NCBI GenBank assembly: GCA_965249615.1
Contig: CBDFMI010000006.1
Span: 444,132-508,131 of the forward strand
Direction of reading: 5' to 3'
Length of the DNA stretch: 64,000 nt
Source of the DNA: a bacterium
GTDB taxonomy: Bacteria > UBA8248 > JACPRG01 > G963555815
Part shown: in pieces, positions 5,667 to 22,045 of the stretch
Layout of the letters: the number at the start of each line of letters is the position of its first letter
Numbering within the stretch: the stretch's first letter is position 1
The notes under the pieces: model-generated
What the model was told of the DNA's origin: nothing
The model's input: the letters and a program-made list of their open reading frames with translations, nothing else
Databases searched by the model: none
Program-made: the position numbers and the translations under genes

Positions 5667-5769
5667 GGCGCCACTTTTTTACTAACAGATGTTCTCATCC
5701 AATCAGCCCATTCGCATCTGCTGTTCTCTTAATATATCGGTCTTCTATCGTCTGTGGGGAGGAGAAAAG

Positions 5770-6882: not shown

Positions 6883-7135
6883 AAGACTAAAATCCCGCCT
6901 GAGACCGCGCTAGGGTTCGCAGACTTTTCCGAGGGTCCTCCGTGAGGGTCCTTCACTCGCCCTTTCGCATCAAACCCCTTCCAATTCAGTCTTGCGTGGG
7001 CCGGGGCTCTCTGGCATCTTGGTATCCGGAGTTCTCGACGACAGGCGCAAATGACGGGCATCTGGGAAGAGATGGGGTCCATTTGTTCCTAAATGGCTTC
7101 AGGGATGGATGAGTAGGGAGGAGTCTGGCGTGGCG

Positions 7136-7525
7136 ATGAAATTTCCTGACGAGCTGAAGTACTCAAAGGAGCACGAGTGGGTCCGTGTGGACGGGAACCA
7201 CACCACGGTGGGGATCACGGAGCACGCCCAGGCGGAGCTCGGTGATGTCGTCCACGTGGAGCTTCCTGAGGTGGGAGCTGAGCTGGAGGCCAGCAATTCC
7301 TTTGGGACGGTGGAGTCTGTCAAAGCGGTTTCCGACCTCTTTGCCCCGGTCTCGGGCAAGGTGACCCAGGTTAACTCCGCTCTTGAAGAGCGGCCCGAGG
7401 TGATCAACTCCGACCCTTATGAAGATGGTTGGATGATTATTATTGAGATGTCCGACCCCGGCGAGCTGGATGGCCTGCTCTCCGCGGATGTGTACGGTAC
7501 CTACGTTGAGGAAGAGGACAGCTAA
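7136..7525 (+). CDS. gcvH: Glycine cleavage system H protein
   Basis: MKFPDELKYSKEHEWVRVDG...SVKAVSDLFAPVSGKV includes the lipoyl-lysine motif ESVKA. Confidence 0.9.
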   Translation: MKFPDELKYSKEHEWVRVDGNHTTVGITEHAQAELGDVVHVELPEVGAELEASNSFGTVESVKAVSDLFAPVSGKVTQVNSALEERPEVINSDPYEDGWMIIIEMSDPGELDGLLSADVYGTYVEEEDS

Positions 7526-7673
7526 GTGCGTTTCGTCCTCCGCACCGAAGTGGATGTGGCAGCCAGCTAGGCGGCCATTGGGGCGCCTGGCCTAGAAAGC
7601 CTGCTTTCCTCCACGGCCCCGCCGACAATACCGCAGGCCTGATTCCTCTTTTTTCAAGGAGTGAAGCGCTCCC

Positions 7674-9794
7674 GTGGACGGTTTACAGTCAGATACTGGG
7701 AGCCGCTGGTCTCTTCTGTGGCGGGATTGTTTGGGGTGGCTATCGGTCTCAGCAGGTCTGGGTGTATTTGAATCGATCCTTCTGGCCTTCCAAAGACCTG
7801 AGATCAATCCCTTCGCAGTGATCGATCTTTTGGATCTCCTGAGCTCCGCCATCGTTTTAAATTCCTTGATGATTCTCCCAGTCTCAGCGGGCCATTTCCT
7901 CCTGTGTTTTCGCCTTTTGGGAGATCGCGACCGTCGGGCGCAGGGTCGAAACACGTTTTTATTCCACCTCGTTGTGTTCCTCGCGTTGGTGTTCACCATT
8001 TTTATTGGCCGAAGACTCATCTTCACGATCCCTGCAGCCATCGTGATCGCCACGGCCCTTTGGTTCGGACTGAAATATACACCCAGGCGGCTGGCCCGTA
8101 TGTTCGGGCTGGGTGTCACCGTTTTCCTGCTGGCCTTTCTTTCCTACGAATTTGCACGGCCATTTTATCCCCTAAAAAATCTCCGCGAGGTCCGGAACGA
8201 AGACAGCGCACTTCCAAATGTGCTCCTGGTGCTTGTGGATACGTTGCGGGCGGATCGGCTCTCCACATACGGCTATTCCAGGGAGACGTCCCCGTTCATT
8301 TCAAAGCTCGCGGGAGAGGGGGCGAAATTTACGAATTTCTATGCGAACGCGAGTTGGACTCCGCCGGCGACGGCAACGATTTTGACCGGCGTATTTCCCT
8401 CAATCCATGGAATAAACGGAACGTCGTTCCAAAAGAAGGCTCCGGTTAAGACGCTTTGTGAGGTTCTGCGCGGACACGGATACAACACGGCTGCGTTTGT
8501 CGCGAACCCATGGATCGGTGAGCGCAGTGGATTACTCGAAGGATGCGACTATCACAGCCCGATGTGGAACCCCTTTAGGCGAAACCACCAGAGACGTGAT
8601 GTCCCAGATCCATCCGCACCCTCTTTCCTGATCCTCGCCAGCGAGCCGATGCTGGAAAACATTTTCGTCTGGAGAAAGTTTGTTTTTTTGCCACGCATTT
8701 TCGTTTGGAATAGATTTGTTTCTTTGTCCGATAGGGTTGTAACCAGCCTTTTCATAATTGACAGGAAGAAGAGCCACCTCCTCCGCGGGGCATTTCGCCT
8801 AATTCAGGAGGTTGATGGAGATGGGAATGATAACCGAGAGGAGATAGAAAATCGCATTCCTCGTGCGGATGAGTTTACACATGGAGTCTTGAACTACGTC
8901 GATTATGTGGCATCGGTGGAAAACCATGATGGCCAAAGGACGAAATTCTTTATCTATCTGCACTATGTAGAACCGCATAGCCCGTATCAGTCACCTGGGC
9001 GCTATGGTCGCCTGTTTGATCCCCACTATCCGGATGAGCGTGTGACTGAGTATCCGGATCCGTCTGAAAATGGGACCACGCCGGAATTGCCGGATGCGCA
9101 GCTGCACAACCTTCAAGCACAATACGACGGAGAGACCCGTTACTTTGATGACAACTTCCAGTTCCTTTTCTCGAATCTAGAGGAAAGGGGGTTCGTGGAT
9201 AACACGTTGATTGTCTTTGTTTCTGACCATGGAGAGGAATTCTACGAGCATCGGGGATTTGGGCATGGGGGAACAGTCTTTGAGGAAGTGCTCAGAGTGC
9301 CTCCCATTTTATGGTACCCCGGCAGCTTGCCCGGCGGACTTGAGGTGGAGGAGCCGGGATCCCAGGTGGATCTAATGCCAACGATTATGGAGGTCCTCGG
9401 TCTTCCGGGGCCCGGGGATTTCCAGGGAAGAAGCTTGTTGCCGCTCATATATGGGGAGGAGAGCGGGGCGGCCATCTATGGAGAAAGCTCACGCGAGCCC
9501 CCTGGCCGCGAGCTTAGTTCTCATCGGTTTTTAGTTCATGGCCGATATAAATTTATCAACCAGGAAAAACCTGAGACAGAGCATGAAAAATTTCTTTTTG
9601 ACCTTCAGTTGGATCCGAACGAGCAAGAAAACATCTACGGCTCTGAAAAAAAGATAGCGGAAGAAATGGAGTTGCTACTGGAAAAATTCGTCACATTGGT
9701 CGAGAATGACCCCCGGTACTCTGAAAACCCAGAGGCCATCGGAGTTGACCCGGAACTGGAGGAGCGTCTGAAGGCTCTCGGATACGTTGAATGA
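7674..9794 (+). CDS. Membrane-anchored sulfatase-family protein (LTA-synthase/phosphoglycerol-transferase-like: N-terminal 5-TM domain plus sulfatase domain)
   Basis: GTG start; N-terminal ~170 aa hydrophobic; sulfatase motif LVLVDTLRADRLSTYGYSRETSPF...SWTPPATATILTG; C-terminus ends ...EERLKALGYVE. Confidence 0.8.
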   Translation: MDGLQSDTGSRWSLLWRDCLGWLSVSAGLGVFESILLAFQRPEINPFAVIDLLDLLSSAIVLNSLMILPVSAGHFLLCFRLLGDRDRRAQGRNTFLFHLVVFLALVFTIFIGRRLIFTIPAAIVIATALWFGLKYTPRRLARMFGLGVTVFLLAFLSYEFARPFYPLKNLREVRNEDSALPNVLLVLVDTLRADRLSTYGYSRETSPFISKLAGEGAKFTNFYANASWTPPATATILTGVFPSIHGINGTSFQKKAPVKTLCEVLRGHGYNTAAFVANPWIGERSGLLEGCDYHSPMWNPFRRNHQRRDVPDPSAPSFLILASEPMLENIFVWRKFVFLPRIFVWNRFVSLSDRVVTSLFIIDRKKSHLLRGAFRLIQEVDGDGNDNREEIENRIPRADEFTHGVLNYVDYVASVENHDGQRTKFFIYLHYVEPHSPYQSPGRYGRLFDPHYPDERVTEYPDPSENGTTPELPDAQLHNLQAQYDGETRYFDDNFQFLFSNLEERGFVDNTLIVFVSDHGEEFYEHRGFGHGGTVFEEVLRVPPILWYPGSLPGGLEVEEPGSQVDLMPTIMEVLGLPGPGDFQGRSLLPLIYGEESGAAIYGESSREPPGRELSSHRFLVHGRYKFINQEKPETEHEKFLFDLQLDPNEQENIYGSEKKIAEEMELLLEKFVTLVENDPRYSENPEAIGVDPELEERLKALGYVE

Positions 9795-9831
9795 AGGTTA
9801 AAGGGCTCGACTCGGACTTGGTGCACACAGC

Positions 9832-12039
9832 ATGAACCGCTGGTCCTTGCTTCGGCGAGATTTTTTGGGATGGCTGGCGGTTTCGGCAGGTCTGGGCGTA
9901 TTTGAATCGGTCTTGCTGGCCTTCCAAAGACCTAAGATCAACCCCTTCGCGGCCATCGATCTGGTCGCTCTTTCGATTTCTGCCGTCCTTTTCAACTCCC
10001 TGATGGTTCTACCCGTTTCACTCGGTCATTTTTTCTTGTATTGGCGGTTTTCTGGAGGCCACGACCATCAGGCGCAGGGCCGAAACGTCTTTTTATTTCA
10101 CCTCGTCGTGTTCCTCGCGGTTGCGTTCATCATTTTTATTGGCCGAAGGCTCATCCTTACGGTTCCTGCAACTATTCTGATGTCCGCGGGCCTTTGGTTC
10201 GGCCTTAGATATCTTTCGACAAGGATTGTTCGGGCATTTTCAGTAGGTGCCGGTATTTTCCTCTTGGCACTTTTTTCGTATGAGTCCCTCCGCTTGCCGC
10301 TCTATATCACAGACCCCGATTATGAACTATGGAAGTCGGAAGTTACGTTATGGGAGGAGGAAGACCCGCGATGTGAGACGCACCTGCGCTTCTCTACTCT
10401 CAACGGCGACCTGGGGTCCCTCGATTCCAGGAACTGTTCCAATTACTACCTGGAGAAGTTCAGGCAGGTAGAAGCGGAGCACCAATCACTGCCGAACGTT
10501 ATTCTGGTTCTTGTCGATACGCTTCGCCCCGATCACCTGTCCACATACGGCTATCATCGAGAGACATCGCCTTTTATTTCGAAGCTGGCGGCGGAGGGGC
10601 TAAAATTTACCAATTTCTATGCGAACGGTGCGTGGACCCCGCCGACGACTTCAACGCTTCTAACCGGCGTTTTTCCCGCAATCCATGGGATATATGAGCC
10701 TGGCGGGCAAAAGAGGGAGACAGTCAAAGTCATTTCTGAGACTCTCCGTGACTACGGCTATAACACAGCCGCCTTTATCGCGAATCCACTGATTACGAAA
10801 AGCACTGGGTTGCTGGACGGATATGATTATTTCTACCGAAAACCCAGGCCGCCGGTGTCGCGGCCGTCGTTGAGGCTCGCGAGCTTCCCCAGTCCGGAGA
10901 ACCTCCTCATATGGGTGAAGTTTCTGTCTCTGTCAGATAAGGTGGTCCAGGCGTTTCGGGGTTTTGATGGGAAGAAAAACGATCTTTTAGTTCAGATATT
11001 TCCCTTCAGCCGTGAATTAGAGCCAGAAAGACAGGAAAGGATACGGGAGGAATTCCGTTTCCCCCCCGCGGAAGTCGACATGGATAAAGAACTCGACTTC
11101 CCCCGGGCGAATGAAATGGCGAACGCGGTGCTGAATTACGTGGATTACGCCTTGGCAGGTCCTGACTTCGACGTTGTGCAAACGAAATTCTTCCTCTTTC
11201 TCCACGACATGGGTCCCCACGATCCTTATAAGTTGCCCACGCCATATGACGTCCTCTTCGACCCTGGGCGCCAGGATAGGCCGGAGGCCGAAGGGGCAGT
11301 CCGGTTTTTGGATGAGTCGCCGCCTGCGTCAGTTCGGGAGAGATTGGCCCATGATTTGCCGCTGTATGACGGAGCAATCCGTTTCTTCGATGATAATTTT
11401 CAGGTGCTCTTTTCGGAACTCAAGGAACGGGGGCTTTTGGACAATACCCTAGTGATCTTGCTGGCAGATCATGGGGAAGAATTCTATGAGCACGGTGAAA
11501 TTGGACATGGGGAGAAGGTCTTTGAGGAAATTGTCAGGATCCCCCTTGTCTTGTGGTATCCAGGGGAATTGCCCTAAGGGGTCGAGGTGAAGGAGTTCGG
11601 GTCGCAGGTGGATATAATACCCACGATCGTGGATGTTCTGGATCTGCCAGTACCAGAGGGGTTGCAGGGAAAGAGCCTCTTGCCCGCGATATCCGGGAGG
11701 GGGCTAGAGAGGGTTGTGTACGGAGAAAACTTGCGTGGTTCGCAGGATTTATCGTCGGGAGATATGTTGCGATTTTTGATCCATGGCCGATATAAACTCA
11801 TCACCATGGGGACACCTAAGACAGTGCGGGAAAAATTGCTCTTTGACCTCCAGTCGGACCCGCATGAGAAAAACAACATCTGCGGGTCTGAGAAAAAGAT
11901 AGCGGAAGAAATGGAATCGCTGCTAGAGGATTTCATCGCATTGGTGAAGAAGGACCCTAGGTATTCTGAAGACCTAGAGGCCGTTGAAGTGGACCCGGAA
12001 CTGCAGAAGCGTCTAAAGGCTCTCGGATACATTGAATGA
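9832..12039 (+). pseudogene. Tandem paralog of the preceding sulfatase-family gene, interrupted by an in-frame TAA at 11575-11577 (N-terminal fragment 9832..11577; C-terminal fragment from GTG 11587..12039)
   Basis: Same frame on both sides of the stop (ELP*GVEVKEFGSQVDIIPTIV aligns to SLPGGLEVEEPGSQVDLMPTIM of paralog 1); N-terminal DNA ~85% identical to paralog 1; the C-terminal fragment ends ...QKRLKALGYIE. Confidence 0.6.
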
Positions 12040-12129
12040 GGGTTAAAAAGTTCGCGTCGATCCTGGTGAAAAAGCAGGCTCACCTTTGGCCCGCGATCGG
12101 GTTTTTAGTTTGAGAGGACGTGGGTAAGA

Positions 12130-13806
12130 ATGTCCATCTCCAAGGTCGCCCTCCTGGGTCTTGACGGTGCCACCTTCTACCTCCTTCGCCCCTGGATGGA
12201 GGATGGAACGCTCCCCAATCTTGCGAACCTCCAAAAACGGGGAGCCTCTGGGGTCCTTGCCTCCACCGTTCCACCGGTGACACCGACGGCCTGGTCCACG
12301 TGCATCACGGGGGTAAACCCGGGAAAGCACGGGATATTCGATTTTCGAGATTCTCCCCTCCGTCATCCCGACCGCCCCCTTCTGAGTCTATCCTCTATCC
12401 GCGCCCCCCGGCTCTGGCAGCTCCTGAATGGGGTCGGGAAAAAGACCATCATCCTCAATGTCCCCATGACTTATCCACCTGAGGCGGTGGACGGGTGCAT
12501 GGTCTCGGGGATGATGACACCGGGGCCGGAGGCGAACTACACTTATCCCCTGGAACTCAAGGCGGAGATCCGTCGGGAGATCGGAGAGTACCTGCCGGAT
12601 ATCGACCTGCCCAAGTACGACGCCGAGCGTTATGAGGATGCCCTGGCATACCTGGACTTGATACGGAAAAGTTTTTCCCAGCGGGAAAAACTTTTCTTCC
12701 ACCTCATGGAGAACCGGCCCTGGGATTTCTTCATGGGGGTTTTCATCTTGCCCGACCGGCTCCAACACGTCTTCTGGAAATATCTGGACCCTGAGGCCGG
12801 GCTCTACGGGACCGAGATCGCCCAGCGGCTCCGAGGCTCGGTCATTGACTGCTATCGTCTGATGGATGATTTTATCGGGCGCCTCGTGGAGCGGCTTTCC
12901 TCTGATACCCTCCTTCTTATCATGTCGGACCACGGTTTTGGACCCACCCAGGCCTGGATCAACGTGAGCACCTGGCTGGAGCAGCAGGGTCTCCTCAAGA
13001 TGAGGGGCCAGATGGCCCTGCAGCGACGCCTCTTGTACCATGCTGTGGGGCTGAACGAGGTGGGCTGGCTAAAACGCCTTATCCCGCAGTCCCTTCAGGC
13101 CTTCGCCCGAAAACGGGTGCGTCAGACCAAGTCCGCCTTTCGGACCGACGTTCAGGTCACCCTGGACTGGGATCGGACCCAGGCCTTTTTTCCCAGCATT
13201 CCGGCTCAAGGGATCTACATCAATGTGGAGCGGGACGGAGCGGGGATCGTCCCCCCGGGGGAGGCCTACGAGGCCCTGCGCGCTCGGCTTCGCGATTCGT
13301 TGCTGGCCCTGAAGGACCCGGCGACAGGGGAACGGATCGTGGACGCGGTGCAGTATCGAGAAGAGGTCTACCACGGGCCCGAAACCCCCTACGCCCCGGA
13401 CCTGTTCTTCGTCGCCCGAAATTACAGCTACCTGGGCCGGCCGATGTTTGGGGGCCGAGAGGTCATCCGGTCGCGCGTCCAGGTGCCAAACGGCTTTCAC
13501 CGCCCCGACGGGATCTTCATGGCTCATGGACCTCACGTGGCCTCGGGCCGGGCGGTCACTGGCTCCCACATCGCTGACATCACCCCCACCATCCTCTATA
13601 GTCTCGGCCTCCCCGTCCCAAAAGAGATGGACGGAAAGCCTTTGTCGGAGATCTTTGAGGCGGACTTTCGGCCCGAGAAGAAGGGCCAAGAGGTGAGCGC
13701 TACTGAAAGTCCACAGCCGCCTGAGAGGACTCCCTCTGAGGCTTATCGTCCCGAGGAGGCCTCCGCCATCGAGAAACGCCTTCGGGCCCTGGGGTATGAG
13801 GACTGA
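12130..13806 (+). CDS. Alkaline-phosphatase-superfamily enzyme (type I phosphodiesterase/nucleotide pyrophosphatase family), paralog 1
   Basis: N-terminus VALLGLDGATFYLLRPWMEDGTLPNLANL...VPPVTPTAWSTCITGVNPGKHGIFDF; ~558 aa; ends ...IEKRLRALGYED. Confidence 0.8.
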   Translation: MSISKVALLGLDGATFYLLRPWMEDGTLPNLANLQKRGASGVLASTVPPVTPTAWSTCITGVNPGKHGIFDFRDSPLRHPDRPLLSLSSIRAPRLWQLLNGVGKKTIILNVPMTYPPEAVDGCMVSGMMTPGPEANYTYPLELKAEIRREIGEYLPDIDLPKYDAERYEDALAYLDLIRKSFSQREKLFFHLMENRPWDFFMGVFILPDRLQHVFWKYLDPEAGLYGTEIAQRLRGSVIDCYRLMDDFIGRLVERLSSDTLLLIMSDHGFGPTQAWINVSTWLEQQGLLKMRGQMALQRRLLYHAVGLNEVGWLKRLIPQSLQAFARKRVRQTKSAFRTDVQVTLDWDRTQAFFPSIPAQGIYINVERDGAGIVPPGEAYEALRARLRDSLLALKDPATGERIVDAVQYREEVYHGPETPYAPDLFFVARNYSYLGRPMFGGREVIRSRVQVPNGFHRPDGIFMAHGPHVASGRAVTGSHIADITPTILYSLGLPVPKEMDGKPLSEIFEADFRPEKKGQEVSATESPQPPERTPSEAYRPEEASAIEKRLRALGYED

Positions 13807-14878
13807 GATGGCAGGTCTGATGACGAAAGTCTCCCATGCCCTTCGAGGGGGTTGGGGGACCCTTTTGAAGGTCGGGGTGAGTGGACTGCTCATCCTTGTC
13901 CTCATTTGGCAGGTGGATTTCGATCGGCTTTGGGTCGTCGTCCGGGATATGTCCCCCGCCTGGCTCCTCCTGGCGCTCTTCTTCAAGTCGGGAGGGGTAT
14001 TCTCGAGCATCCTTCGGTGGCGAGTGCTTCTGAAGGGACAGGACCTCGCCGTCCCTTTAAAAGTCCTCACCTCCTCCTTTCTCGAAGGCCGTTTCTTCGG
14101 CACCTTCACGCCGAGCACCATCGGCCTTGACGCCTATCGAACGTATGACCTGGCCAAGTATTCCGGCCGAACAGCGGCCTCGGTTTCAGTCACATTGGTG
14201 GATAAGGTGATCGGGCTGTTCTCTCTCTCCTTTCTCGTGGCGGTCACCTCATTTGCCGGCGCCCGGTTTGTTGGAGGGCAAGGGGTCTTCTCCCTTCTCC
14301 TCGTCTTCTGTGTCCCCCTCTCCCTGTCCCTGATCTTTCTCCTTTTTCCGGGGCTCCTTGGCCGACTCGTCGACATCAGGAGGTGGAAATCAGGAGGATG
14401 GGCGGAGAAGATGGGCCGTTTCGTCGAAACCGTCACCGTCTATCGCCACCACCGGATCCTCATTGTTCAGGCGGTCGGGCTCGCTATCTTGGTCCACCTT
14501 GGGACCACGCTCATGTATTACGGGACGGCCCTTTCGGTGCAAGCCCCGGTCAGCCCCTTGGACATCCTCTTCGTTGGGCCCCTGATGATCACGGCGACGG
14601 TCATCCCTCTTTCTGTGGCCGGGATCGGGGTCCGTGAGGGGACCTTTGTCTTCTTCCTCACTCGGGTGGGGATCGAGGCGGAGGCCGCCATCCTTCTCGC
14701 CTTTCTCGGGTTCCTCGTAGGCGAGGTCATCAGCCTTTTCGGAGGCTTCATCTTCCTGTTGCGCTCCCACGCGTATCATCGGCGTGAGGGGGGGGTCGCC
14801 GGGGCCGCGGAAAGCGGCCTGGGCAAAGCCGGGGGTGAGGAAGAGGCCGTGGGGACAAAGAAAGAGATTGGCTCTTGA
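13796..14878 (+). CDS. Flippase-like / lysyl-phosphatidylglycerol-synthase-type transmembrane-domain protein (UPF0104)
   Basis: ~8 TM segments; the LLILVLIWQVDFDRLWVVVRDMSP and GTFTPSTIGLDAYRTYDL pattern is typical of this family; overlaps neighbouring genes, suggesting translational coupling; exact start (13796, 13808 or 13820) uncertain. Confidence 0.65.
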   Translation: MRTEMAGLMTKVSHALRGGWGTLLKVGVSGLLILVLIWQVDFDRLWVVVRDMSPAWLLLALFFKSGGVFSSILRWRVLLKGQDLAVPLKVLTSSFLEGRFFGTFTPSTIGLDAYRTYDLAKYSGRTAASVSVTLVDKVIGLFSLSFLVAVTSFAGARFVGGQGVFSLLLVFCVPLSLSLIFLLFPGLLGRLVDIRRWKSGGWAEKMGRFVETVTVYRHHRILIVQAVGLAILVHLGTTLMYYGTALSVQAPVSPLDILFVGPLMITATVIPLSVAGIGVREGTFVFFLTRVGIEAEAAILLAFLGFLVGEVISLFGGFIFLLRSHAYHRREGGVAGAAESGLGKAGGEEEAVGTKKEIGS

Positions 14879-16551
14879 GACGCCTCCTCATCATCGGCGT
14901 CGACGCCGGCACCCTGGACCTCATCGAGCCGTGGGCCCGAGCGGGTGATCTCCCCCATCTGGCCCGTCTCCTCAGGGAGGGGGCCTATGGGCGAGTCCAG
15001 TCGACCCTCCCCCCCTCCACCTATCCCGCCTGGACCTCCTTCATGACCGGTCAGAACCCCGGGCGGCACGGTCTCGTGGACTTCACCTTGAGGGAGGGAG
15101 GGCGCTATGCCGTCAGATTCGCCAGCTCCCGAGACCGGCAAAGTGCTAGTTTGTGGGGGATCCTCAGTGAGGCCGGCCGAAGAGTCGCCGTCCTCGGCAT
15201 GCCCGCCACATACCCCCCTGAAGCCGTCAACGGCTGTATGGTCAGCGGATTCGACTCCCCCCTAGCATGGCGTCTCAACGAGAGCTTTTTTCATCCTCGA
15301 GGGCTCCACCGGGAGGTCATACAGGAGGCGGGACTCTTCCCGCTCTCGGCCTGCCGGGAGGATCGGATCGGAAAGGGCTGGCACGAGCGGGCCTATCGGG
15401 AGATCCTGAAATCACTGGAGCAAGAAACTCGCGTGGCGGAGTACCTCCTGGGCCGGGAAGCGTGGGATTGCTTCTGCGTCGTCTTCGGCCAGACAGATAC
15501 GGTGTGCCATCATTTCTGGAAATTCTTCGACCCATCCTCTCCCCGATATGACTCAGAGGGGGCGAGGCGCTTTGGAGACGCCATCCGTCAAGTCTATCGG
15601 CGTGTGGATTCAGCCATCGGTTCCCTGCTGCAAAAGGCGCCCGATGACGTCACGGTCCTCATCGTCTCGGACCACGGAGCGGGGGGGGCAGGAAACCAGA
15701 TTATTCATTTAAACGCTTGGCTGGCCGGGGAGGGCCATCTGACCTTTCGAAAGGGGGGGGTGGGCTACCGTGCCCTTTCAGCCCTGAAGACGCTGGGCCT
15801 CGGCTATCTCCCGAGGAGGGTTCAAGAACAGGTCTTTCGTGCGGGCGGGGGCAGGCTGGCAAATGGGCTAGAATCCCGCTTGCGTTTCGGCCAGATCGAA
15901 TGGGCGAAGACCCGGGTCTATTCCGAGGAGCTGGGTTATTTCCCCTCTCTTTGGATCAACCTTCGGGGGAGGGAGCCTCAGGGGACGGTGGAGCCCGGCA
16001 GGGAATATGAGGATCTGAGGGACGAGATCATCAGCCGCTTAGAGGTTCTCAGACACCCCGTCACGGGGAGGCGCCTCGTTGAGCGGGCCGTTCGGCGAGA
16101 GGAGGTTTATTGGGGCCCCTTTGTGGACCGGGTTCCTGACATTCTCCTGGAGCTCGCCCTCGACGAGGGCTATAGCTACTCCTGCCTTCGAAGTCCAGCC
16201 CGCTCCCAGGGCCCCTTCGTTCGCTCTCTCCAGAGAGCGGAGGGGGCCAGGGGCCAGGGGATGAACGGCTCACACCGACCAGAGGGGTTTTTCGTTCTCT
16301 CGGGTGAGGGGGTGCGCCCGGGGAAGTGCCGGTTCACCCCCCATCTCATGGACTTTGCCCCGACGCTTCTCGCCCTTTTGGGGATCACCCCTTCGGTGGG
16401 GATGGACGGTCGGGTCTTGGAAGAAGTCCTGAGCGTCCCTGAGCCTCATCCCGTCCCCGTCGCCGTGGCAGGGGAAGAGACGCCTTCGGCGGCCCAGGGG
16501 TGGGAAGGCACGGCCTTCCGGCGGCTTCGGGACCTTGGATACCTGGAATGA
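14875..16551 (+). CDS. Alkaline-phosphatase-superfamily enzyme (type I phosphodiesterase family), paralog 2
   Basis: TTG start overlapping upstream stop (TTGA); IIGVDAGTLDLIEPW...LPPSTYPAWTSFMTGQNPGRHGLVDF; ends ...FRRLRDLGYLE. Confidence 0.8.
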   Translation: MRRLLIIGVDAGTLDLIEPWARAGDLPHLARLLREGAYGRVQSTLPPSTYPAWTSFMTGQNPGRHGLVDFTLREGGRYAVRFASSRDRQSASLWGILSEAGRRVAVLGMPATYPPEAVNGCMVSGFDSPLAWRLNESFFHPRGLHREVIQEAGLFPLSACREDRIGKGWHERAYREILKSLEQETRVAEYLLGREAWDCFCVVFGQTDTVCHHFWKFFDPSSPRYDSEGARRFGDAIRQVYRRVDSAIGSLLQKAPDDVTVLIVSDHGAGGAGNQIIHLNAWLAGEGHLTFRKGGVGYRALSALKTLGLGYLPRRVQEQVFRAGGGRLANGLESRLRFGQIEWAKTRVYSEELGYFPSLWINLRGREPQGTVEPGREYEDLRDEIISRLEVLRHPVTGRRLVERAVRREEVYWGPFVDRVPDILLELALDEGYSYSCLRSPARSQGPFVRSLQRAEGARGQGMNGSHRPEGFFVLSGEGVRPGKCRFTPHLMDFAPTLLALLGITPSVGMDGRVLEEVLSVPEPHPVPVAVAGEETPSAAQGWEGTAFRRLRDLGYLE

Positions 16552-17768
16552 GTGGAGAGAAAGGATCTCGTCGGAAGGTGGCCATGGTGGCCCCCTGTCC
16601 CTTCCCAAGCGTTCAGGGCTCCCAGATCCTGATCCAGGATCTGGCCGGGGGCCTCGAGAGGAGGGGACACGAGGTCCACGTGGTCACTTACCCCTTCGGG
16701 GGCTCCCGTCCGACCGCTTCCTTGCGGATCCACCGGGCTGCCTGTCCCCTTCGTTATGCCGTGGACCACCCGGGCCCTCATCTCTATAAACCTTTTCTGG
16801 ACCTCTTCGTCTTGAGAGAGCTCCTGCGGGTCATCCGCGGGGAGGGGATTGAGCTCCTCCACGCCCACAGCTATGAGGGGTTGCTCATCTCCCTGCTGGC
16901 CGGAAGGTGGACGGGCATTCCCGTCCTCTATCACAGCCACACCCTCCTCGAGGAGGAGCTCCCCACCTATTTTCGGGCCTCGTGGAAGCGCGCCCTGGCG
17001 CATTGGGTGGGCCGACTGCTGGACCGACAGCTTCCGCGTCGGTCAGACCATTGCATTGCCCTTTGTCAGAGAACCCTTGGGGCCTTTCGGGCCTTGGGGG
17101 TGGCGGCGGATCGCTCTTCCTGCATTCGTCCTCTGATCTTTTCCCCCGCCGATAAAACTCCTTCCAGGGTGGATGTAGAGCGCCATCCCTTCATCCTCTA
17201 TACGGGAAACCTCCACCCGTATCAGGATCTCAATCTCCTGATGGAGGGGTTCGCCGAGGTGGCCTCGAGGCTCTCAGAGGTCCGCCTGGTTATCGCCACC
17301 CATTCTGACCCTTCCCATTACGCCGCCCTGGCAAGGGCCCTGGGGCTGTCGGAGCGGGTCTCCTTTCGCGTGAAACCTCCCTTGGATGAAGAGTGGGGTT
17401 TGATGCGGAGGGCCGACCTCCTCGTCTGTCCGCGCCTTCGGTGCTCCGGCTACCCCATCAAGCTTTTGAACTACCTGGCGGCTGGAAGGCCCATCCTCGT
17501 CAGTGAGGGCTCGGCCGAGGGGATTCGCCATGGCGAGAACGGCTACGTTGTCTCTCGGCCTGAACCGAAAACCCTGGCGGAGGGGGCTATTCAAATCCTT
17601 CAGTCCCCCGCCTTGGCAAAACGGTTGGGCGAAGGGGCGGCCCGGACCTACCGGGAGGAGGTGGCGGAAGAGCGCTCCTTGTCGGCCATCGAGGCCATCT
17701 ACACGCAGTGTCTGGGGGAGGAGGGGAACGCGGCCCTCCTCGCCCACCCGAGGGAAATGGCCTCATGA
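16548..17768 (+). CDS. Glycosyltransferase family 4 (GT-B fold)
   Basis: ATG overlaps the upstream stop (ATGA); VAMVAPCPFPSVQGSQILIQDLAGGLERRGHEVHVV N-terminal GT4 motif; C-terminal GTLHPYQDL...E...E-type block. Confidence 0.8.
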   Translation: MSGEKGSRRKVAMVAPCPFPSVQGSQILIQDLAGGLERRGHEVHVVTYPFGGSRPTASLRIHRAACPLRYAVDHPGPHLYKPFLDLFVLRELLRVIRGEGIELLHAHSYEGLLISLLAGRWTGIPVLYHSHTLLEEELPTYFRASWKRALAHWVGRLLDRQLPRRSDHCIALCQRTLGAFRALGVAADRSSCIRPLIFSPADKTPSRVDVERHPFILYTGNLHPYQDLNLLMEGFAEVASRLSEVRLVIATHSDPSHYAALARALGLSERVSFRVKPPLDEEWGLMRRADLLVCPRLRCSGYPIKLLNYLAAGRPILVSEGSAEGIRHGENGYVVSRPEPKTLAEGAIQILQSPALAKRLGEGAARTYREEVAEERSLSAIEAIYTQCLGEEGNAALLAHPREMAS

Positions 17769-19168
17769 CCAAGGTCTTGATCCTGGGCCTCGATTGCGCA
17801 GACCCTCGCCTGGTCTTTGACCGCTGGCGACAAGAACTTCCGAACCTCAGACAGCTCATGGAGGCCGGCGTCTGGGGCCCTCTTCAGAGCACCATCCCCC
17901 CCATCACGGTCCCAGCCTGGGCCTGCATGATGACGGGGCGGGACCCTGGAGAGCTAGGGATCTATGGGTTCCGAAACCGGACCTCCTATCAGTACGGGGC
18001 CCTGGGGATCACCAGCTCTCTCTCGGTCCAAGAGGAGACCCTGTGGGACATCCTGGGCCGCACCGGCCGGGAGGTGGTGGTCGTCGGGGTCCCTCCTTCA
18101 TATCCTGTGAAGCCCGTCCGGGGCAGCCTCATCTCCTGCTTTCTCACCCCGAACGCCGAGGTCCCTTTCACGCATCCCCCTGAGCTCAAGGAGGAGGTTC
18201 AGCGTCTTGCCGGCGGGTACCTGTTTGACGTGGAGGGATTCCGGACCGACGACAAGCCCCGGCTCCTCCAACAGATCCACGAGATGACAGAAAAACGCTT
18301 TAGGGTCCTGAAACACCTACTCACCCGAAAGCCGTGGGACTTTTTTATGTCGATGGAGATCGGGGTGGACCGCATGCATCACGGCTTTTGGAAATTTCAC
18401 GATGAGGGCCACATCAAGCACCCCCCGCAAAACCCCTATCAGCACGTCATTCTGGACTATTACCGCTATGTGGACAAGGAGATCGGTGAGCTGGTGGAGT
18501 CCGTCGACGAGGACACGGTCATCATCGTCCTCTCTGATCACGGGGTGAAGAGGATGGAGGGGGGGCTGTGCGTCAACGAATGGCTCATGAAGCAGAAATA
18601 TCTGAGCCTCTCCGCCTACCCCAAGGAGCTCACCTCCCTCAGCAAGCTCGATGTGAACTGGGACCGGACCATGGTCTGGGGAGAAGGGGGGTACTATGGC
18701 CGGATCTATCTCAACGTAAAGGGCCGGGAACCCCAGGGGGTCATCGCCCCAAATGACGTGGAGAAGATCCGGGCAGAGCTGAAACAGGGCATGGAAGAGC
18801 TTTCCGACGAATCAGGGCGCCCCCTCGGGACCCGCGTATTCTATCCCGAGGAGGTCTATCAGGAGGTCCGGAGGATCCCGCCCGATCTCATCGTCTATTT
18901 TGGAGACCTGGACTGGCGCTCTGTCGGGACCGTGGGCCATGGCTCGATCCACACCCGAGAGAATGACACGGGCCCTGACGACGCCAACCACGACACCCAC
19001 GGGATATTCATCATGGCGAAGAAGGCGGACCTCAAAGGGGGCGGGACCGGTCTGGGAACCCGCCTCGACGGTCTCAGCCTCTACGACGTGACCCCCACCG
19101 TCCTGGACCTCCTTGGCCTTCCCATCCCACCCTCGATGCACGGGCGAGTGATTTCTCCTAGAGCCTGA
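17765..19168 (+). CDS. Alkaline-phosphatase-superfamily enzyme (type I phosphodiesterase family), paralog 3
   Basis: ATGA overlap with the glycosyltransferase; MTKVLILGLDCADPRLVFDRW...IPPITVPAWACMMTGRDPGELGIYGF; lacks the LGY tail. Confidence 0.8.
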   Translation: MTKVLILGLDCADPRLVFDRWRQELPNLRQLMEAGVWGPLQSTIPPITVPAWACMMTGRDPGELGIYGFRNRTSYQYGALGITSSLSVQEETLWDILGRTGREVVVVGVPPSYPVKPVRGSLISCFLTPNAEVPFTHPPELKEEVQRLAGGYLFDVEGFRTDDKPRLLQQIHEMTEKRFRVLKHLLTRKPWDFFMSMEIGVDRMHHGFWKFHDEGHIKHPPQNPYQHVILDYYRYVDKEIGELVESVDEDTVIIVLSDHGVKRMEGGLCVNEWLMKQKYLSLSAYPKELTSLSKLDVNWDRTMVWGEGGYYGRIYLNVKGREPQGVIAPNDVEKIRAELKQGMEELSDESGRPLGTRVFYPEEVYQEVRRIPPDLIVYFGDLDWRSVGTVGHGSIHTRENDTGPDDANHDTHGIFIMAKKADLKGGGTGLGTRLDGLSLYDVTPTVLDLLGLPIPPSMHGRVISPRA

Positions 19169-19208
19169 TCGGTCCGCCTGTCTGGCTGAAAGAACCGCCA
19201 GAAAAAGC

Positions 19209-19236
19209 TTGACGGGGAAAAATGGGTGTATATACT
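19209..19236 (+). promoter_or_regulatory. Strong sigma70-like promoter element (TTGACG-N16-TATACT), copy 1 of a 30-bp element repeated at 35897
   Basis: cTTGACGgggaaaaatgggtgtaTATACTc; 27/30 nt identical to 35896-35925. Confidence 0.45.
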
Positions 19237-19326
19237 CGTTGTATCGGAAGAGACTGAAGGAGACGGAATTTCAGTCCGAGAGCGGGGCCACGCAATGGAG
19301 CAGAAATGGCCCAGGAGGGGGTGAAC

Positions 19327-20034
19327 ATGGGCGAGCTTTCTTCCACGGCGAAGCGTGCTGTCTCAGCCTACGGCGGGGCCGATCGCTGGCGAAACGCACG
19401 GGCCATCGAGGCTGTGGTCTCGGCCAACGGCTTGGGCTTCCGCTTGAAGTGGCGGCGTCCTGCCCCAAATGCGGACGTCCGGGTGGAGATAGCGGAACCG
19501 GTCGTCAGGATGGATCTCAAAGATAGCGAGGGGCACATCGGCGTGATGGACCGGGGAGACGTGAGGATTGAGACGTCTTCTGGTAAAGTCGTGGCCTCAC
19601 GGCCGAATCCAGAACACCTGTTTCCCTACGGGCGAAGGGCTTTTTGGTGGGATCGGCTCGACCAGATCTACTTCTCAGGGTACGCCTTGTGGAACTACAT
19701 GACGCTTCCGGCCCTGTTGCTCAGGGACGACATCCAATGGGAGGAGCTCAGAGAGGGGAGCCTTCAGGCGCGTTTTCCCAAACATCTTCCAACACATTGC
19801 GAGGTGCAGCAGTTTCATTTCGAGCCGGCCACAGGGCTCCTGCGCCAGCTCGACTACACGGCGGAGGCCTTCGGAAACTGGGCCAAGGCCGCGAACGTGG
19901 TTTTGGAGCACGGCGAATCGGAGGGGATTCCTTATCCTTCACTGCGTCGGGTTACCCCGCGCCGAGGGGACGGCAGCCCGCGCAAGGGGCCGCTCCTCGT
20001 CGGGATCGAATTCCATCGATTCCGGCTCGTCTAG
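19327..20034 (+). CDS. Hypothetical protein
   Basis: GGAGG RBS 7 nt upstream of ATG 19327 (the 19306 ATG lacks an RBS); 235 aa, no recognisable family. Confidence 0.5.
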   Translation: MGELSSTAKRAVSAYGGADRWRNARAIEAVVSANGLGFRLKWRRPAPNADVRVEIAEPVVRMDLKDSEGHIGVMDRGDVRIETSSGKVVASRPNPEHLFPYGRRAFWWDRLDQIYFSGYALWNYMTLPALLLRDDIQWEELREGSLQARFPKHLPTHCEVQQFHFEPATGLLRQLDYTAEAFGNWAKAANVVLEHGESEGIPYPSLRRVTPRRGDGSPRKGPLLVGIEFHRFRLV

Positions 20035-20042
20035 TCCCCAAT

Positions 20043-20675
20043 CTAGTCGATATATCCCAAGCCCTTCAGTTTGGCCTGGATGGTCTGCTTCTCTTCCTCG
20101 GAATAGACGTAATCGGCGGGCTCGATGTAACCGAATTCTTCCAGCCGAGAGAGAATATGCGCGACAGATTCCTTAACCGACTCTTTGTCCGTCTCGACGG
20201 TTATCTCGGGGTTGAGGGGCTCTTCATAGGGGTCTGAGACCCCCGTAAAATTCTTAATCTCACCCTTAAAAGCTTTCGCGTACATCCCTTTCACGTCCCG
20301 TTCTGCGCAGACCTCAACAGGGCATTTGACGTAGAGCTCCACGAAGCGCCCCACCTCGGCCCTTACGGCGTCTCGGATGGCCCGGTAGGGGGCGATGACC
20401 GCCGCCATGTTGGGAACCCCGTTTCGGGTCAAGAGGTGACAGAGGTATCCCAGGCGAATGATGTGCTTATCGCGGTCCTCTTTGGAGAAGCCGAGGTCGG
20501 CGCTGAGATTGCGGCGCACTTCGTCGCCGTCGAAGACCTCGACGTTCGGAAAACCGCGCTCGTGAAGTTTCTCTCCGAGAAGAACGGCAATCGTGCTTTT
20601 CCCTGAGCAGGGAAGGCCTGTGAACCAGACCGTGAACCCTCTGGGTTTATCTTTGATCACTTTCTCTCTCCTCAA
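20043..20675 (-). CDS. cysC: Adenylylsulfate (APS) kinase with a ~25-aa C-terminal extension
   Basis: P-loop GLPCSGKSTIA, DGDxxR motif FDGDEVRRNL; the extension ends ...QAKLKGLGYID; overlaps sat by ATGA. Confidence 0.9.
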   Translation of the reverse strand: MRREKVIKDKPRGFTVWFTGLPCSGKSTIAVLLGEKLHERGFPNVEVFDGDEVRRNLSADLGFSKEDRDKHIIRLGYLCHLLTRNGVPNMAAVIAPYRAIRDAVRAEVGRFVELYVKCPVEVCAERDVKGMYAKAFKGEIKNFTGVSDPYEEPLNPEITVETDKESVKESVAHILSRLEEFGYIEPADYVYSEEEKQTIQAKLKGLGYID

Positions 20676-21850
20676 GAGCCGCCGTCAGAACCCTGTCCTG
20701 CCCGCTCGGCGTAAGCCTGGTGCAAGACCCGGGCGACTTCAGGCCGCATCACCTCCGGGGGTGGAAGCTCCCCGCGGTCTAAAATTTCCCTCACACGAGT
20801 TCCGCTCAGGAAGACGCGCTCTTTCTCCCCGTGGGGGCAGGTCTTGGCCGTTATCATGGCCTCACACCCACGGCAGTAGAAGGCGTGGTCGAAGAAGAGA
20901 GGGGTGATCCCGATCTCCGAGGCCTCGAACTCGTGGAAGATATGGTGGGCGTCATAGGAGCCGTAGTAAGACCCGACGCCGGCGTGGTCCCGGCCCACGA
21001 TGAAATGGGTACAGCCGTAGTTCTTTCGCACGATAGCGTGGAAGATGGCCTCCTTCGGCCCGGCGTAGCGCATGGCCGCCGGAAACACGGAGAGGACCGT
21101 CCGGTTCTTGGGAAAATAGCTCTCCAGGATCACCCTGTAGGAGGCCATCCGGAGGTCCGCCGCCAGGTCGCCCTCCTTGGTGGCCCCGACCAGGGGATGA
21201 AGTAGGAGGCCGTCCACACATTCTAGGGCGCACTTCTGAATGTACTCGTGGGCGCGATGAATGGGGTTTCGGGTCTGGAAGGCCACGACCGTCTTCCACC
21301 CCTTGAGCTGAAAGAGAAGGCGGGTCTCCTTGGGTTCCAGATGGAAGTTGGACCACTCGGTGGCGGCCCCTCTTCGAAGGAGTTTAATAGGCCCCCCGAT
21401 GAGGACAGGGCCTCGCTCGAAGACCTGGCGAACCCCGGGGTGGTCCGAATCTTTTGTCCCGAAGACCTGCTCCACCTCCCTCTCCTTGTCCGGCTTCCAC
21501 TGAGAGGTGACCCGAAGAAGCCCGGTCGTTTCCTTCCCGACCGTGAGGGTAATCTCGTCACCTATGGAAAGGGTCTGGGCCGTCTTCTCATCCACGCCGA
21601 GGACGATGGGAAGCGTCCAGGGAAGGCCCAAGGCGAGGCGCTGGTCTTCCACCACAGCCTGGTAGTCCTCCTCCTCCATGAATCCCCTTAGGGGGCTGTA
21701 GGCCCCCGTCGCGATGAGTTCGAGATCGGAATGCTCCTGGGCCGACAGGGCGATTTTCGGCAGCCCTTGGGCTTTTTTGTCCAAGGCGGGCCGATCCTCC
21801 TCCCGGACCATCCGGTCGACGAGGACCCCGCCGTGCGGTTTGATAGGCAC
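20672..21850 (-). CDS. sat: Sulfate adenylyltransferase (ATP sulfurylase)
   Basis: 392 aa; QTRNPIHRAHE and GRDHAGVG motifs; start preceded by GAGGAGG RBS. Confidence 0.9.
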   Translation of the reverse strand: MPIKPHGGVLVDRMVREEDRPALDKKAQGLPKIALSAQEHSDLELIATGAYSPLRGFMEEEDYQAVVEDQRLALGLPWTLPIVLGVDEKTAQTLSIGDEITLTVGKETTGLLRVTSQWKPDKEREVEQVFGTKDSDHPGVRQVFERGPVLIGGPIKLLRRGAATEWSNFHLEPKETRLLFQLKGWKTVVAFQTRNPIHRAHEYIQKCALECVDGLLLHPLVGATKEGDLAADLRMASYRVILESYFPKNRTVLSVFPAAMRYAGPKEAIFHAIVRKNYGCTHFIVGRDHAGVGSYYGSYDAHHIFHEFEASEIGITPLFFDHAFYCRGCEAMITAKTCPHGEKERVFLSGTRVREILDRGELPPPEVMRPEVARVLHQAYAERAGQGSDGGS

Positions 21851-22045
21851 CTAAAAACCCTCCTCACCCCGGAGTCCCGGGGAATTGTATGGGGTGGAAA
21901 GACATCGCGCTTTTGTGTCCAAAACGCCAATTCTATCAGACAATTTCGGGTCCGTCCACCTGCCGCTGTGTTCAGGGGATCAGTTGTGGGGGGCCGGCCT
22001 TGCGGGGTTGAGGGCGGGTTTGCTCGAAGCGTCCTTCCCCGGGTC

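Follow-up and report, generated by a model that had tools for sequence, protein, structure and literature searches.

A conserved C-terminal helical tail on sulfate-activation and alkaline-phosphatase-superfamily enzymes of archaea and bacteria

Five tailed proteins in one gene cluster

The window analysed here is a 64-kb stretch (64,000 nucleotides) of contig CBDFMI010000006.1 from a bacterium of the GTDB lineage UBA8248. Between 7.6 and 20.7 kb it encodes five proteins that share a short C-terminal tail: two sulfatase-like proteins, two alkaline-phosphatase-like (AP-like) enzymes and the convergently transcribed adenosine 5'-phosphosulfate (APS) kinase CysC. Positions are those of the window, with the strand in brackets, and ORF stands for open reading frame.

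7674..9794 (+): sulfatase-like 1, 706 residues, N-terminal hydrophobic domain with 4-6 predicted transmembrane (TM) segments, PF00884/SGSH_C, tailed (ORF, Pfam, hydropathy)
9714..9791 (+): tail module of sulfatase 1, RYSENPEAIGVDPELEERLKALGYVE (ORF translation, six-frame scan, tail alignment)
9832..12039 (+): sulfatase-like 2, paralog of sulfatase 1, in-frame TAA at 11575-11577, frame running on to the tail (ORF, Pfam)
11959..12036 (+): tail module of sulfatase 2, RYSEDLEAVEVDPELQKRLKALGYIE (ORF translation, six-frame scan, tail alignment)
12130..13806 (+): AP-like 1, PF01663 enzyme resembling nucleotide pyrophosphatases/phosphodiesterases (NPP-like), 558 residues, soluble, tailed (Pfam, E=5.1e-35)
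13744..13803 (+): tail module of AP-like 1, YRPEEASAIEKRLRALGYED, behind a linker of ~30 residues rich in Pro, Glu and Ser (ORF translation)
14875..16551 (+): AP-like 2, PF01663 enzyme, 558 residues, tailed (Pfam, E=5.6e-43)
16501..16548 (+): tail module of AP-like 2, WEGTAFRRLRDLGYLE, N-terminal half degenerate (ORF translation)
20043..20675 (-): APS kinase CysC, 210 residues by ORF (205 as called elsewhere), with C-terminal extension (Pfam, NCBIfam)
20121..20150 (-): the CysC kinase domain's own last helix, tail-like, SRLEEFGYIE (ORF translation; family consensus KLEELGYIP)
20046..20105 (-): tail module of CysC, YSEEEKQTIQAKLKGLGYID (ORF translation; helix predicted by AlphaFold2, AF2)

In translation, sulfatase 1 ends in ...DPELEERLKALGYVE, the C-terminal part of sulfatase 2 in ...DPELQKRLKALGYIE, AP-like 1 in ...AIEKRLRALGYED, AP-like 2 in ...TAFRRLRDLGYLE and CysC in ...SRLEEFGYIEPADYVYSEEEKQTIQAKLKGLGYID. 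All five ends share (R/K)L(K/R)xLGYx(D/E)-COOH. The ORF table and a six-frame scan bear out these C-termini, which had been given by an earlier interpretation of the bare letters (the sequence-only reading), and ORF translation likewise agrees with it that the third paralog, AP-like 3 (17708-19168 +), is tail-free. Across the 64 kb, a stop stands exactly two residues behind LGY five times, each time in one of the five tailed proteins, and no additional ORF of the window matched a relaxed tail pattern. Synonymous sites differ among the five tails and Rfam returned no match at window positions 7000-22500; the conservation is thus at the protein level, which rules out an RNA or DNA element beneath the tail.

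The catalytic domains are readily assigned. Sulfatase 1 matches Pfam Sulfatase with E=1.4e-43, its SGSH_C match stopping at residue 666. The core of AP-like 1 adopts the NPP/PhnA fold, with Xac NPP, ENPP1/3 and PhnA as best Foldseek matches. CysC is an APS kinase with a P-loop-containing domain (PF01583, E=1.8e-55, residues 12-160) that scores 211.7 bits against TIGR00455, where the cut-off is 138.7; the NCBIfam models stop at residue 185 of 210. Since PF00884 (Sulfatase) and PF01663 both belong to the alkaline-phosphatase superfamily, and the window's proteins of these two families match each other's Pfam models, the tailed proteins represent two unrelated superfamilies, not the three unrelated families counted previously. 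Sulfatase 2 had also been described as frameshifted. Its frame is instead continuous to the tail except for the TAA, where it reads YPGELP, the stop and then GVEVKEFGSQVD, at a place where its paralog sulfatase 1 reads YPGSLPGGLEVEEPGSQVD; the TAA is a nonsense mutation or a sequencing error, and the downstream part, tail included, is intact. The N-terminal hydrophobic domains of sulfatases 1 and 2 occupy 7674-8180 and 9832-10300, with 4-6 predicted TM segments.

Anatomy and predicted structure of the tail

Alignment of the tails defines a unit of 19-20 residues, [YF]-[ST]-x-E-E-x3-[IV]-x2-[RK]-L-x2-L-G-Y-[LIMV], followed by 0-2 further residues. The motif described in the sequence-only reading is contained in this unit, but the conserved stretch is longer and begins with an aromatic-Ser/Thr-x-Glu-Glu N-cap. 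Counted from the Gly, the aromatic residue stands at -16 and Ser/Thr at -15, the two Glu come next, and a hydrophobic stripe runs through -8, -4 and -1. Among 306 distinct pooled tails, [IV] occupies -8 in 94%, [RK] -5 in 96%, Leu -4 in 99% and Leu -1 in 98%; the residue before Tyr is an invariant Gly, and Glu is found at -11 in 43%. The family consensus strings, YSEEEEEKIKkRLkaLGYL for CysC, YSeEE.aEIe.RLraLGYL for PF01663, TEEEEAeIekRLrDLGYl for sulfatases and fSEEEEEkVKERLRaLGYL for small ribbon-helix-helix (RHH) proteins, are nearly identical across unrelated folds.

By the rules of helix capping, [ST]-x-x-E makes an N-capping box, the aromatic residue before it adds a hydrophobic staple, and L-G-aromatic corresponds to a Schellman-type C-cap. 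With capping signals at both ends, the tail unit reads as one self-contained amphipathic helix. AF2 places a helix at residues 193-205 of CysC, with predicted local distance difference test (pLDDT) scores of 78-87. In AP-like 1 (mean pLDDT 89.8, catalytic core >90) the tail helix, residues 541-553, is predicted at pLDDT ~68, following a linker at 61-74 and preceding final residues at 45, and it is left undocked in cis. The earlier idea of an interaction strand does not agree with these helix predictions. Linkers vary; among AP-like 1 orthologs their median length is ~33 residues.

None of the Pfam and NCBIfam matches to tailed proteins extends over the tail. PDB searches with a tail peptide and an RHH-tail protein gave no relevant entry and no solved structure with the tail, and full-text literature searches with strings taken from the tail (RLRALGY, ALGYLD and others) gave chance matches alone. 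The passages that term searches retrieve from the literature on CysDN, APS kinase, methanogen sulfate reduction and the sulfur metabolism of anaerobic methanotrophic archaea (ANME) contain no mention of the tail. The tail is a strongly conserved helical module of ~19 residues that has not been described previously.

Conservation and census of the tail

The sequence-only reading had allowed that the CysC extension might lack conservation and occur by chance. It is present in 115 of the 120 best CysC homologs, from sources that include Nitrospinota, Poribacteria and Syntrophobacterales; 104 of them finish at GY-[LIVMF], 8 add Asp and 3 add Glu. The tail is likewise found in 117 of the 120 best AP-like 1 homologs, the remaining 3 being shorter and apparently truncated. 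AP-like 1 orthologs carry one residue after GY-phi (phi, hydrophobic), mostly Glu or Asp, also Ser, Gly or Ala.

A profile of 24 tails, run against 1.84 billion representative proteins, gave 479 matches at E <= 0.001. The matches listed fall into three groups: fragments from the C-terminal ends of CysC and AP-like proteins; proteins of 60-100 residues that form a coherent family, with a ribbon-helix-helix-like N-terminus and the tail; and, by eye from the repeat pattern, PG_binding_1-type repeat proteins, whose helix 1 reads V..LQ.RLK.LGYY.G. The highest cumulative profile scores belong to secreted proteins of this last type (P0122, P0124, P0146, P0194, P0197 and P0235, by eye).

A census at the DNA level used the degenerate pattern EEE-x3-[IV]-x2-[RK..]-L-x2-L-G-Y-phi, with no stop demanded and one genome per species, and gave at least 120 loci. 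Of at least 124 pattern sites, 65 lie directly before a stop, 55 are followed by one residue and 2 by two, so that 122 of the 124 fall within 0-2 residues of the end; two of the sites listed are internal, one of them in an apparent RecX-type protein. About half of the sampled tails therefore terminate at G-Y-phi-COOH with a penultimate Tyr, and the residues that follow GY-phi in the others vary in identity (Asp, Glu, Gly, Ser, Ala, Pro, Thr). Concerted evolution of this extra residue within a genome, as expected if a common partner reads the terminus, was not seen (19 concordant versus 15 discordant pairs); the residue is family-specific instead.

The loci come from archaea (Thermococcus, Archaeoglobaceae, Methanosarcinales, ANME-1, Thermoplasmata, Bathyarchaeia, Nitrososphaeria, Crenarchaeota, Nanohaloarchaea and Asgard-related archaea) and from bacteria (Acidobacteriota, Chloroflexota, Planctomycetota, Verrucomicrobiota, Actinomycetota, Armatimonadota, Zixibacteria, Poribacteria, WOR-3, Elusimicrobia and others). 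On 119 carrier ORFs Pfam recognised Phosphodiest in 49, APS_kinase in 21, Sulfatase in 16 (with SGSH_C on 8) and RHH_1 in 9; ~35 more small proteins are too short for a Pfam score. The tail is thus real and more widespread than could be seen from the window. Some perfect tails stand on unusual carriers. By eye, the degenerate CysC-like proteins P0270 (no P-loop) and P0204 (variant P-loop) keep it, as do small domains with no Pfam match (P0147, P0239 and a 94-residue protein at L064:2205-2486 that adjoins a PF01663 gene and Sat).

Carrier families and their genomic neighbourhoods

The neighbourhoods of the sampled loci (up to 8 kb, ~4 kb on each side; 871 ORFs) were clustered and classified by seed searches. 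Counts of tailed members per family are given below.

PF01663: 47/103 tailed
CysC: 18/27 tailed
Sulfatase: 9/17 tailed
CysD: 9/9 tailed
Small RHH: 38/38 tailed
Sat (ATP sulfurylase): 0/20 tailed
DHH phosphoesterase (pAp phosphatase): 0/7 tailed
CysN: 0/6 tailed
GT4 and LPG_synthase_TM: 0 tailed
TauE/SafE permeases with an internal motif, in ANME/Methanosarcinales CysDN operons: L093:1417-2238, L110:1995-2816, L120:7046-7861

The tail is confined to a closed set of families, namely PF01663 enzymes, sulfatases, APS kinase, CysD and small CopG/RHH proteins, plus a loop of TauE. As only 47 of the 103 PF01663 proteins and 9 of the 17 sulfatases are tailed, and the Pfam and NCBIfam matches stop short of the tail, it is no generic feature of the catalytic domains, in agreement with the sequence-only reading. 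These 9 tailed sulfatases are soluble, with a hydrophobic segment in 0 of them, and so are the 47 tailed PF01663 proteins apart from 4 with a marginal hydrophobic segment. In an alignment, the archaeal CysD tail, ...MQKLRALGYM, falls on the C-terminal end of Pseudomonas syringae CysD (1ZUN_A, ...MEEKKRQGY). In TauE the motif is internal in 3 of 4 proteins (...LIKERLRGLGYLPKS...), on a loop inserted where the Pfam TauE match splits; a free C-terminus is therefore not required.

Two types of operon recur. The first comprises RHH-tail, Sat, DHH, an untailed PF01663 protein of ~470 residues and CysC. It is spread over Thermococcus, Nitrososphaeria, Latescibacterota, other archaea and several bacterial phyla, with examples in a metagenome-assembled genome (MAG) of Thermococcus (L016, 658-5427) and in L007, L047, L094, L097, L100, L103 and L002. 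The second, from ANME and Methanosarcinales, comprises two RHH-tail genes, TauE, CysD-tail, DUF2061, CysN and a small AP-like protein. Tandem pairs of distinct tailed RHH genes are seen at L042:5492-5928, L063:273-718 and L093:2252-2691, where type A ends in ...IRERLRRLGYL and type B in ...VKKRLRALGYL[DET]; the pair lies upstream of TauE-CysD-CysN in L063 and L093, and near the L042 pair only CysN and an AP-like ORF were classified.

Overall, tailed CysC, CysD and CopG genes lie in sulfate-activation clusters, and tailed PF01663 genes mostly beside glycosyltransferase and flippase-like genes. An untailed PF01663 gene accompanies 16 of the 18 tailed-CysC loci, and GT4 or LPG_synthase_TM is found at 12 of the 40 tailed-PF01663 loci; a GT4-like BLAST cluster occurs in 15 of the at least 120 loci. 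The annotated recurrent neighbours (clusters 3, 5, 7-14 and 16, several of whose names rest on reading by eye) are GT4, GT2, epimerase, LPG_synthase_TM, Wzx-like, DHH, CysN, TauE, DUF2061, ABC ATPase, E1-type dehydrogenase and acyl-CoA dehydrogenase. The tie between sat-cysC and the AP-like genes, suggested from the window, recurs as synteny in many archaea and bacteria.

Other genes of the window

The untailed genes among and beside the tailed ones are as follows.

13796..14878 (+): flippase-like membrane protein, LPG_synthase_TM, untailed (Pfam, E=2e-33; TIGR00374)
16500..17768 (+): GT4 glycosyltransferase, untailed (Pfam)
17708..19168 (+): AP-like 3, PF01663 enzyme, 486 residues, untailed (Pfam, E=9.5e-51)
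20672..21850 (-): ATP sulfurylase Sat, 392 residues, untailed, adjoining cysC (ORF; PUA_2 and ATP-sulfurylase on the L001 counterpart)

With these, the window combines both kinds of neighbourhood: two tailed sulfatases, two tailed PF01663 enzymes, the flippase-like protein, GT4 and an untailed PF01663 enzyme, and beside them tailed CysC and Sat. AP-like 3 is of the same type as the untailed protein of ~470 residues that adjoins CysC, Sat and CopG in other genomes, and its N-terminus is, by eye, similar to L016:1659-3083. AP-like 3 and cysC are separated by an ORF of 242 residues at 19306-20034 (+) that matches neither Pfam nor NCBIfam models.

A near-identical contig, L001 (ENA ERZ25071923 contig_13, 272 kb), carries the same cluster, and the Sat domains were scored on the 392-residue gene at the corresponding position there. 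On L001 the genes for the AP-like, flippase-like and sulfatase proteins are broken up into many short calls, probably by assembly indels. The nearest named relatives of single window proteins are in Nitrospinota (72%) and Candidatus Tectomicrobia (64%) MAGs. The flanks lie outside the finding: at 5689-6882 an ORF resembles, by eye, class V fructose-1,6-bisphosphate aldolase/phosphatase; at 22046-23464 lies a ThyX-like protein of 472 residues (Pfam Thy1 on the L001 counterpart); and from 23596 onward there is a nuo (complex I) operon (Pfam on L001 counterparts).

Function of the tail

We tentatively propose, with rather less than even confidence, that the tail is a trans-acting docking helix that assembles a module making and using 3'-phosphoadenosine 5'-phosphosulfate (PAPS). 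Several features point to recognition in trans. The same 19 positions are kept on folds that have no common surface, behind long and variable linkers; the carriers form a closed set, many of them co-encoded, that includes the operon's own regulator and permease; and the tail is retained on the P-loop-less P0270 and left undocked by AF2 in AP-like 1. The sequence-only reading had suggested a common recognition or assembly tag. The presence of the same module on additional unrelated families (CysD, CopG/RHH and the TauE loop) makes a shared tag the most economical explanation, and to that extent the suggestion holds; the recognition function itself we infer. Its alternative suggestion, a sorting or processing signal, is unlikely where such a signal needs an exact C-terminus, with 0-2 residues following GY-phi and the motif internal in TauE.

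In the proposed arrangement, the tail, an autonomous capped amphipathic helix on a variable linker, would dock various proteins onto a common partner. The module gathered in this way would hold APS kinase, CysD, the TauE permease, NPP-like and sulfatase-like enzymes and the operon's CopG regulator. APS and PAPS would be made and used inside one complex, and the CopG regulator could sense that complex. As the clusters are scattered over both domains of life, a receptor should travel with them. The best candidate for the receptor is the untailed NPP-like paralog of ~470 residues (AP-like 3 in the window), which accompanies tailed CysC and RHH genes more constantly than any other protein. The tail-like last helix of CysC itself (KLEELGYIP) is a second possibility.

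A number of observations weigh against this proposal. The pLDDT of 78-87 for the CysC tail fits packing in cis onto the kinase. The tailed sulfatases of the window are membrane-anchored by hydropathy (4-6 TM segments) with ambiguous topology, and if their catalytic domains face outward, a cytoplasmic hub cannot serve them. The RLxxLGY core is also a common helix-end motif, present for example in helix 1 of PG_binding_1, and some of the likeness may have arisen by convergence. For the largest carrier family, co-assembly with PAPS enzymes is not evident from synteny, since within ~4 kb of tailed PF01663 genes Sat is found at 0 of 40 loci and CysC at 2 of 40. Finally, 36 of the at least 120 loci have no alkaline-phosphatase-superfamily gene within 8 kb, a count that is partly an artefact of crude ORF calling.

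A non-canonical sulfotransferase has been postulated for archaea, methanogens among them, that keep ATP sulfurylase, APS kinase and pAp phosphatase but have no known sulfotransferase (Jespersen et al., PMC10322725). By their synteny, and several of them by their tail, the NPP-like proteins would be obvious candidates for this enzyme. Extended in this direction, the docking proposal would make the tail the address label of a PAPS metabolon not described before. CysC/CysD, TauE, tailed NPP-like and sulfatase-like transferases and the CopG repressor would dock on the untailed NPP-like hub, which would be the non-canonical sulfotransferase; the repressor would read hub occupancy, and the window would make a sulfated glycolipid or glycan. 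We regard this full picture as speculative and unlikely to hold in all its parts.

Four other explanations rank below docking. The tails might pair with one another and with the tail-like last helix of CysC, antiparallel and acidic half against basic half, a variant of assembly that needs no separate receptor. The charge-bipolar module, EEEE followed by turns rich in Lys/Arg, would suit such pairing, as would the two tail-like helices in tandem on CysC (AF2 is fairly confident on the second), small proteins with two tails or two RHH-tail units (P0175, P0135) and the tandem tailed RHH genes of L042, L063 and L093. The hydrophobic stripe, however, covers only ~1.5 heptads, little for a coiled coil to be stable, the tail of AP-like 1 is predicted unpaired and at low confidence, and the invariant Gly-Tyr and near-invariant Arg suggest a shaped pocket and not a helix-helix zipper. 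We consider homotypic pairing improbable.

To a similar degree we doubt that the tail is a structural or autoregulatory helix acting in cis on its own domain, gained independently or by descent, whose likeness between families reflects helix-capping rules. The tail-like last helix of the APS kinase domain, the similarly tail-like C-terminus of CysD with its alignment to the P. syringae protein, the fairly confident prediction of the CysC tail and the occurrence of RLxxLGY in PG_binding_1 all speak for it. It does not readily explain why 19 positions, N-cap included, are kept on a P-loop kinase, the alkaline-phosphatase superfamily, RHH proteins and a TauE loop, nor the length and variability of the linkers or the undocked tail of AP-like 1; in RHH proteins of ~70 residues the tail makes up one third of the length, and restriction to families of the same kinds of cluster is unexpected under convergence.

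A membrane-targeting amphipathic helix of the MinD/FtsA type, holding enzymes at the inner face of the membrane for modification of lipid-linked glycans or glycolipids, appears slightly more doubtful still. In its favour are the amphipathic, basic character of the second half of the tail (KIKxRLKxLGYL), the GT4, GT2, Wzx-like and LPG_synthase_TM genes beside tailed PF01663 genes, and the membrane anchoring of the window's tailed sulfatases. Membrane-targeting helices, however, keep amphipathicity and not residue identity, while the tail keeps Gly, Tyr, both Leu and Arg at 96-100% from family to family, in archaea and bacteria alike; the run of 4-5 Glu right before the helix would be repelled by anionic lipids, and the motif also stands on the DNA-binding CopG and the integral membrane protein TauE.

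That the tail marks its carriers for degradation or processing, as a C-degron, an HbYX-like proteasome motif or a C-terminal plug like that of CysE, is very improbable. Such a signal would account for the C-terminal position and for the penultimate Tyr of about half of the sampled tails, and a joint turnover of one pathway's proteins would make sense. But the 0-2 residues after GY-phi vary in identity, the window tails all carry two residues behind Tyr, TauE has the motif internally, and many of the carrier phyla are not known to have 20S proteasomes. Docking is the best-supported function for the tail, if an unproven one.

Comparison with known systems

Like the MinD/FtsA targeting sequences, the tail is a short basic amphipathic C-terminal helix on cytoplasmic proteins. 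It differs in its residue-specific conservation (94-100% at seven positions), its poly-Glu run and its DNA-binding carrier. With helix 1 of PG_binding_1 (V..LQ.RLK.LGYY.G, by eye) it shares the core xIxxRLxxLGY-aromatic/aliphatic. The PG_binding_1 domain, of ~60 residues, is built of several helices (helix 1, then those with DGxFG...FQ...GL), of which the tail matches only the first. The carriers gave no Pfam PG_binding_1 match and, among 119, one weak PG_binding_2 match; the candidate domain was therefore rejected in favour of a helix-1-like segment only. Unlike the secreted PG_binding_1 repeat proteins, the carriers have no signal peptides or TM segments, the window sulfatases excepted. The likeness is probably that of a common helix-end motif.

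MIM1 of ESCRT-III proteins, (D/E)xxLxxRLxxL(K/R), binds MIT domains. Its spacing recurs in the tail as [E]xx[I/V]xxRLxxL, again on an amphipathic helix at the C-terminus, a likeness that serves as a lead only, and the positions -8 (Ile/Val), -5 (Arg), -4 (Leu) and -1 (Leu) fit. In the tail, the final Lys/Arg is replaced by the invariant Gly-Tyr, and Glu at -11 is kept in fewer than half of the sequences (43%). No MIT family was noticed among the recurrent neighbours, which were annotated without an explicit or genome-wide MIT search. An HbYX motif, a hydrophobic residue and then Tyr next to last, was set aside, because Tyr has two residues behind it in each of the five window tails and in about half of those sampled, and the residue before it is the invariant Gly.

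The encapsulation peptides of bacterial microcompartments and the cargo peptides of encapsulins offer a likeness in form: a terminal amphipathic helix on a poorly conserved linker co-localises unrelated enzymes of one cluster. The tail resembles them in its AF2 helix on a low-confidence linker and in being carried by five or more families. The tail differs in standing also on a DNA-binding regulator and a permease, and in its residue identity, which is usually far less conserved in encapsulation peptides. No shell or encapsulin family is present among the annotated recurrent neighbours of the at least 120 loci (~4 kb on each side), in a general annotation that included no explicit search with their models; the encapsulation reading was provisionally set aside.

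The complex of serine acetyltransferase CysE with CysK (the cysteine synthase complex) couples metabolism to regulation and has known mimics, and its CysE plug depends on a terminal Ile with a free carboxylate. In this complex, described in PMC6829319, one sulfur-metabolism protein binds by a C-terminal peptide to a second enzyme of its pathway. The tail is also a C-terminal peptide on sulfur-metabolism proteins, but a helix of 15 residues where the CysE tail is an extended peptide of 4-10. A plug of the CysE type was rejected on the spread of tail ends (65 sites at GY-phi, 55 with one and 2 with two further residues), the variation among AP-like 1 orthologs and the internal motif of TauE.

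The closest genomic precedent is the 'sulfate assimilation' cluster of Pyrococcus yayanosii, reported to hold copG, ATP sulfurylase, pApase (DHH), a type I phosphodiesterase and APS kinase (Jin et al. 2021, PMC8268124). There the phosphodiesterase is speculated to degrade pyrophosphate, and the gene-cluster section of that paper, with the passages found by term search, makes no mention of a shared tail. This cluster corresponds to our first operon type (L016, L097, L103). In the window, sat-cysC and AP-like 3 form its bacterial counterpart, with Sat, CysC and PF01663 co-located; no tailed RHH ORF occurs in the window and no DHH domain among the genes scanned at 7.6-21.9 kb, and both could lie elsewhere in the genome. 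The window goes beyond the P. yayanosii cluster in its sulfatase-like and tailed NPP-like paralogs (the former tailed as well), its GT4 and its flippase-like protein.

Should the tail prove to be a docking tag, it would predict a physical complex that channels APS and PAPS, the uncharacterised NPP-like proteins would stand out as candidates for the missing PAPS-using enzymes of these organisms, and a simple sequence marker would be at hand to find members of the pathway in any genome. The tail also suggests how a small CopG operon regulator could sense the pathway. In microcompartments, encapsulins and the cysteine synthase complex, terminal peptides address different enzymes to one place. The tail would be a new peptide of this addressing sort, carried by sulfate-activation and alkaline-phosphatase-superfamily enzymes in many, mostly uncultured, archaeal and bacterial phyla.

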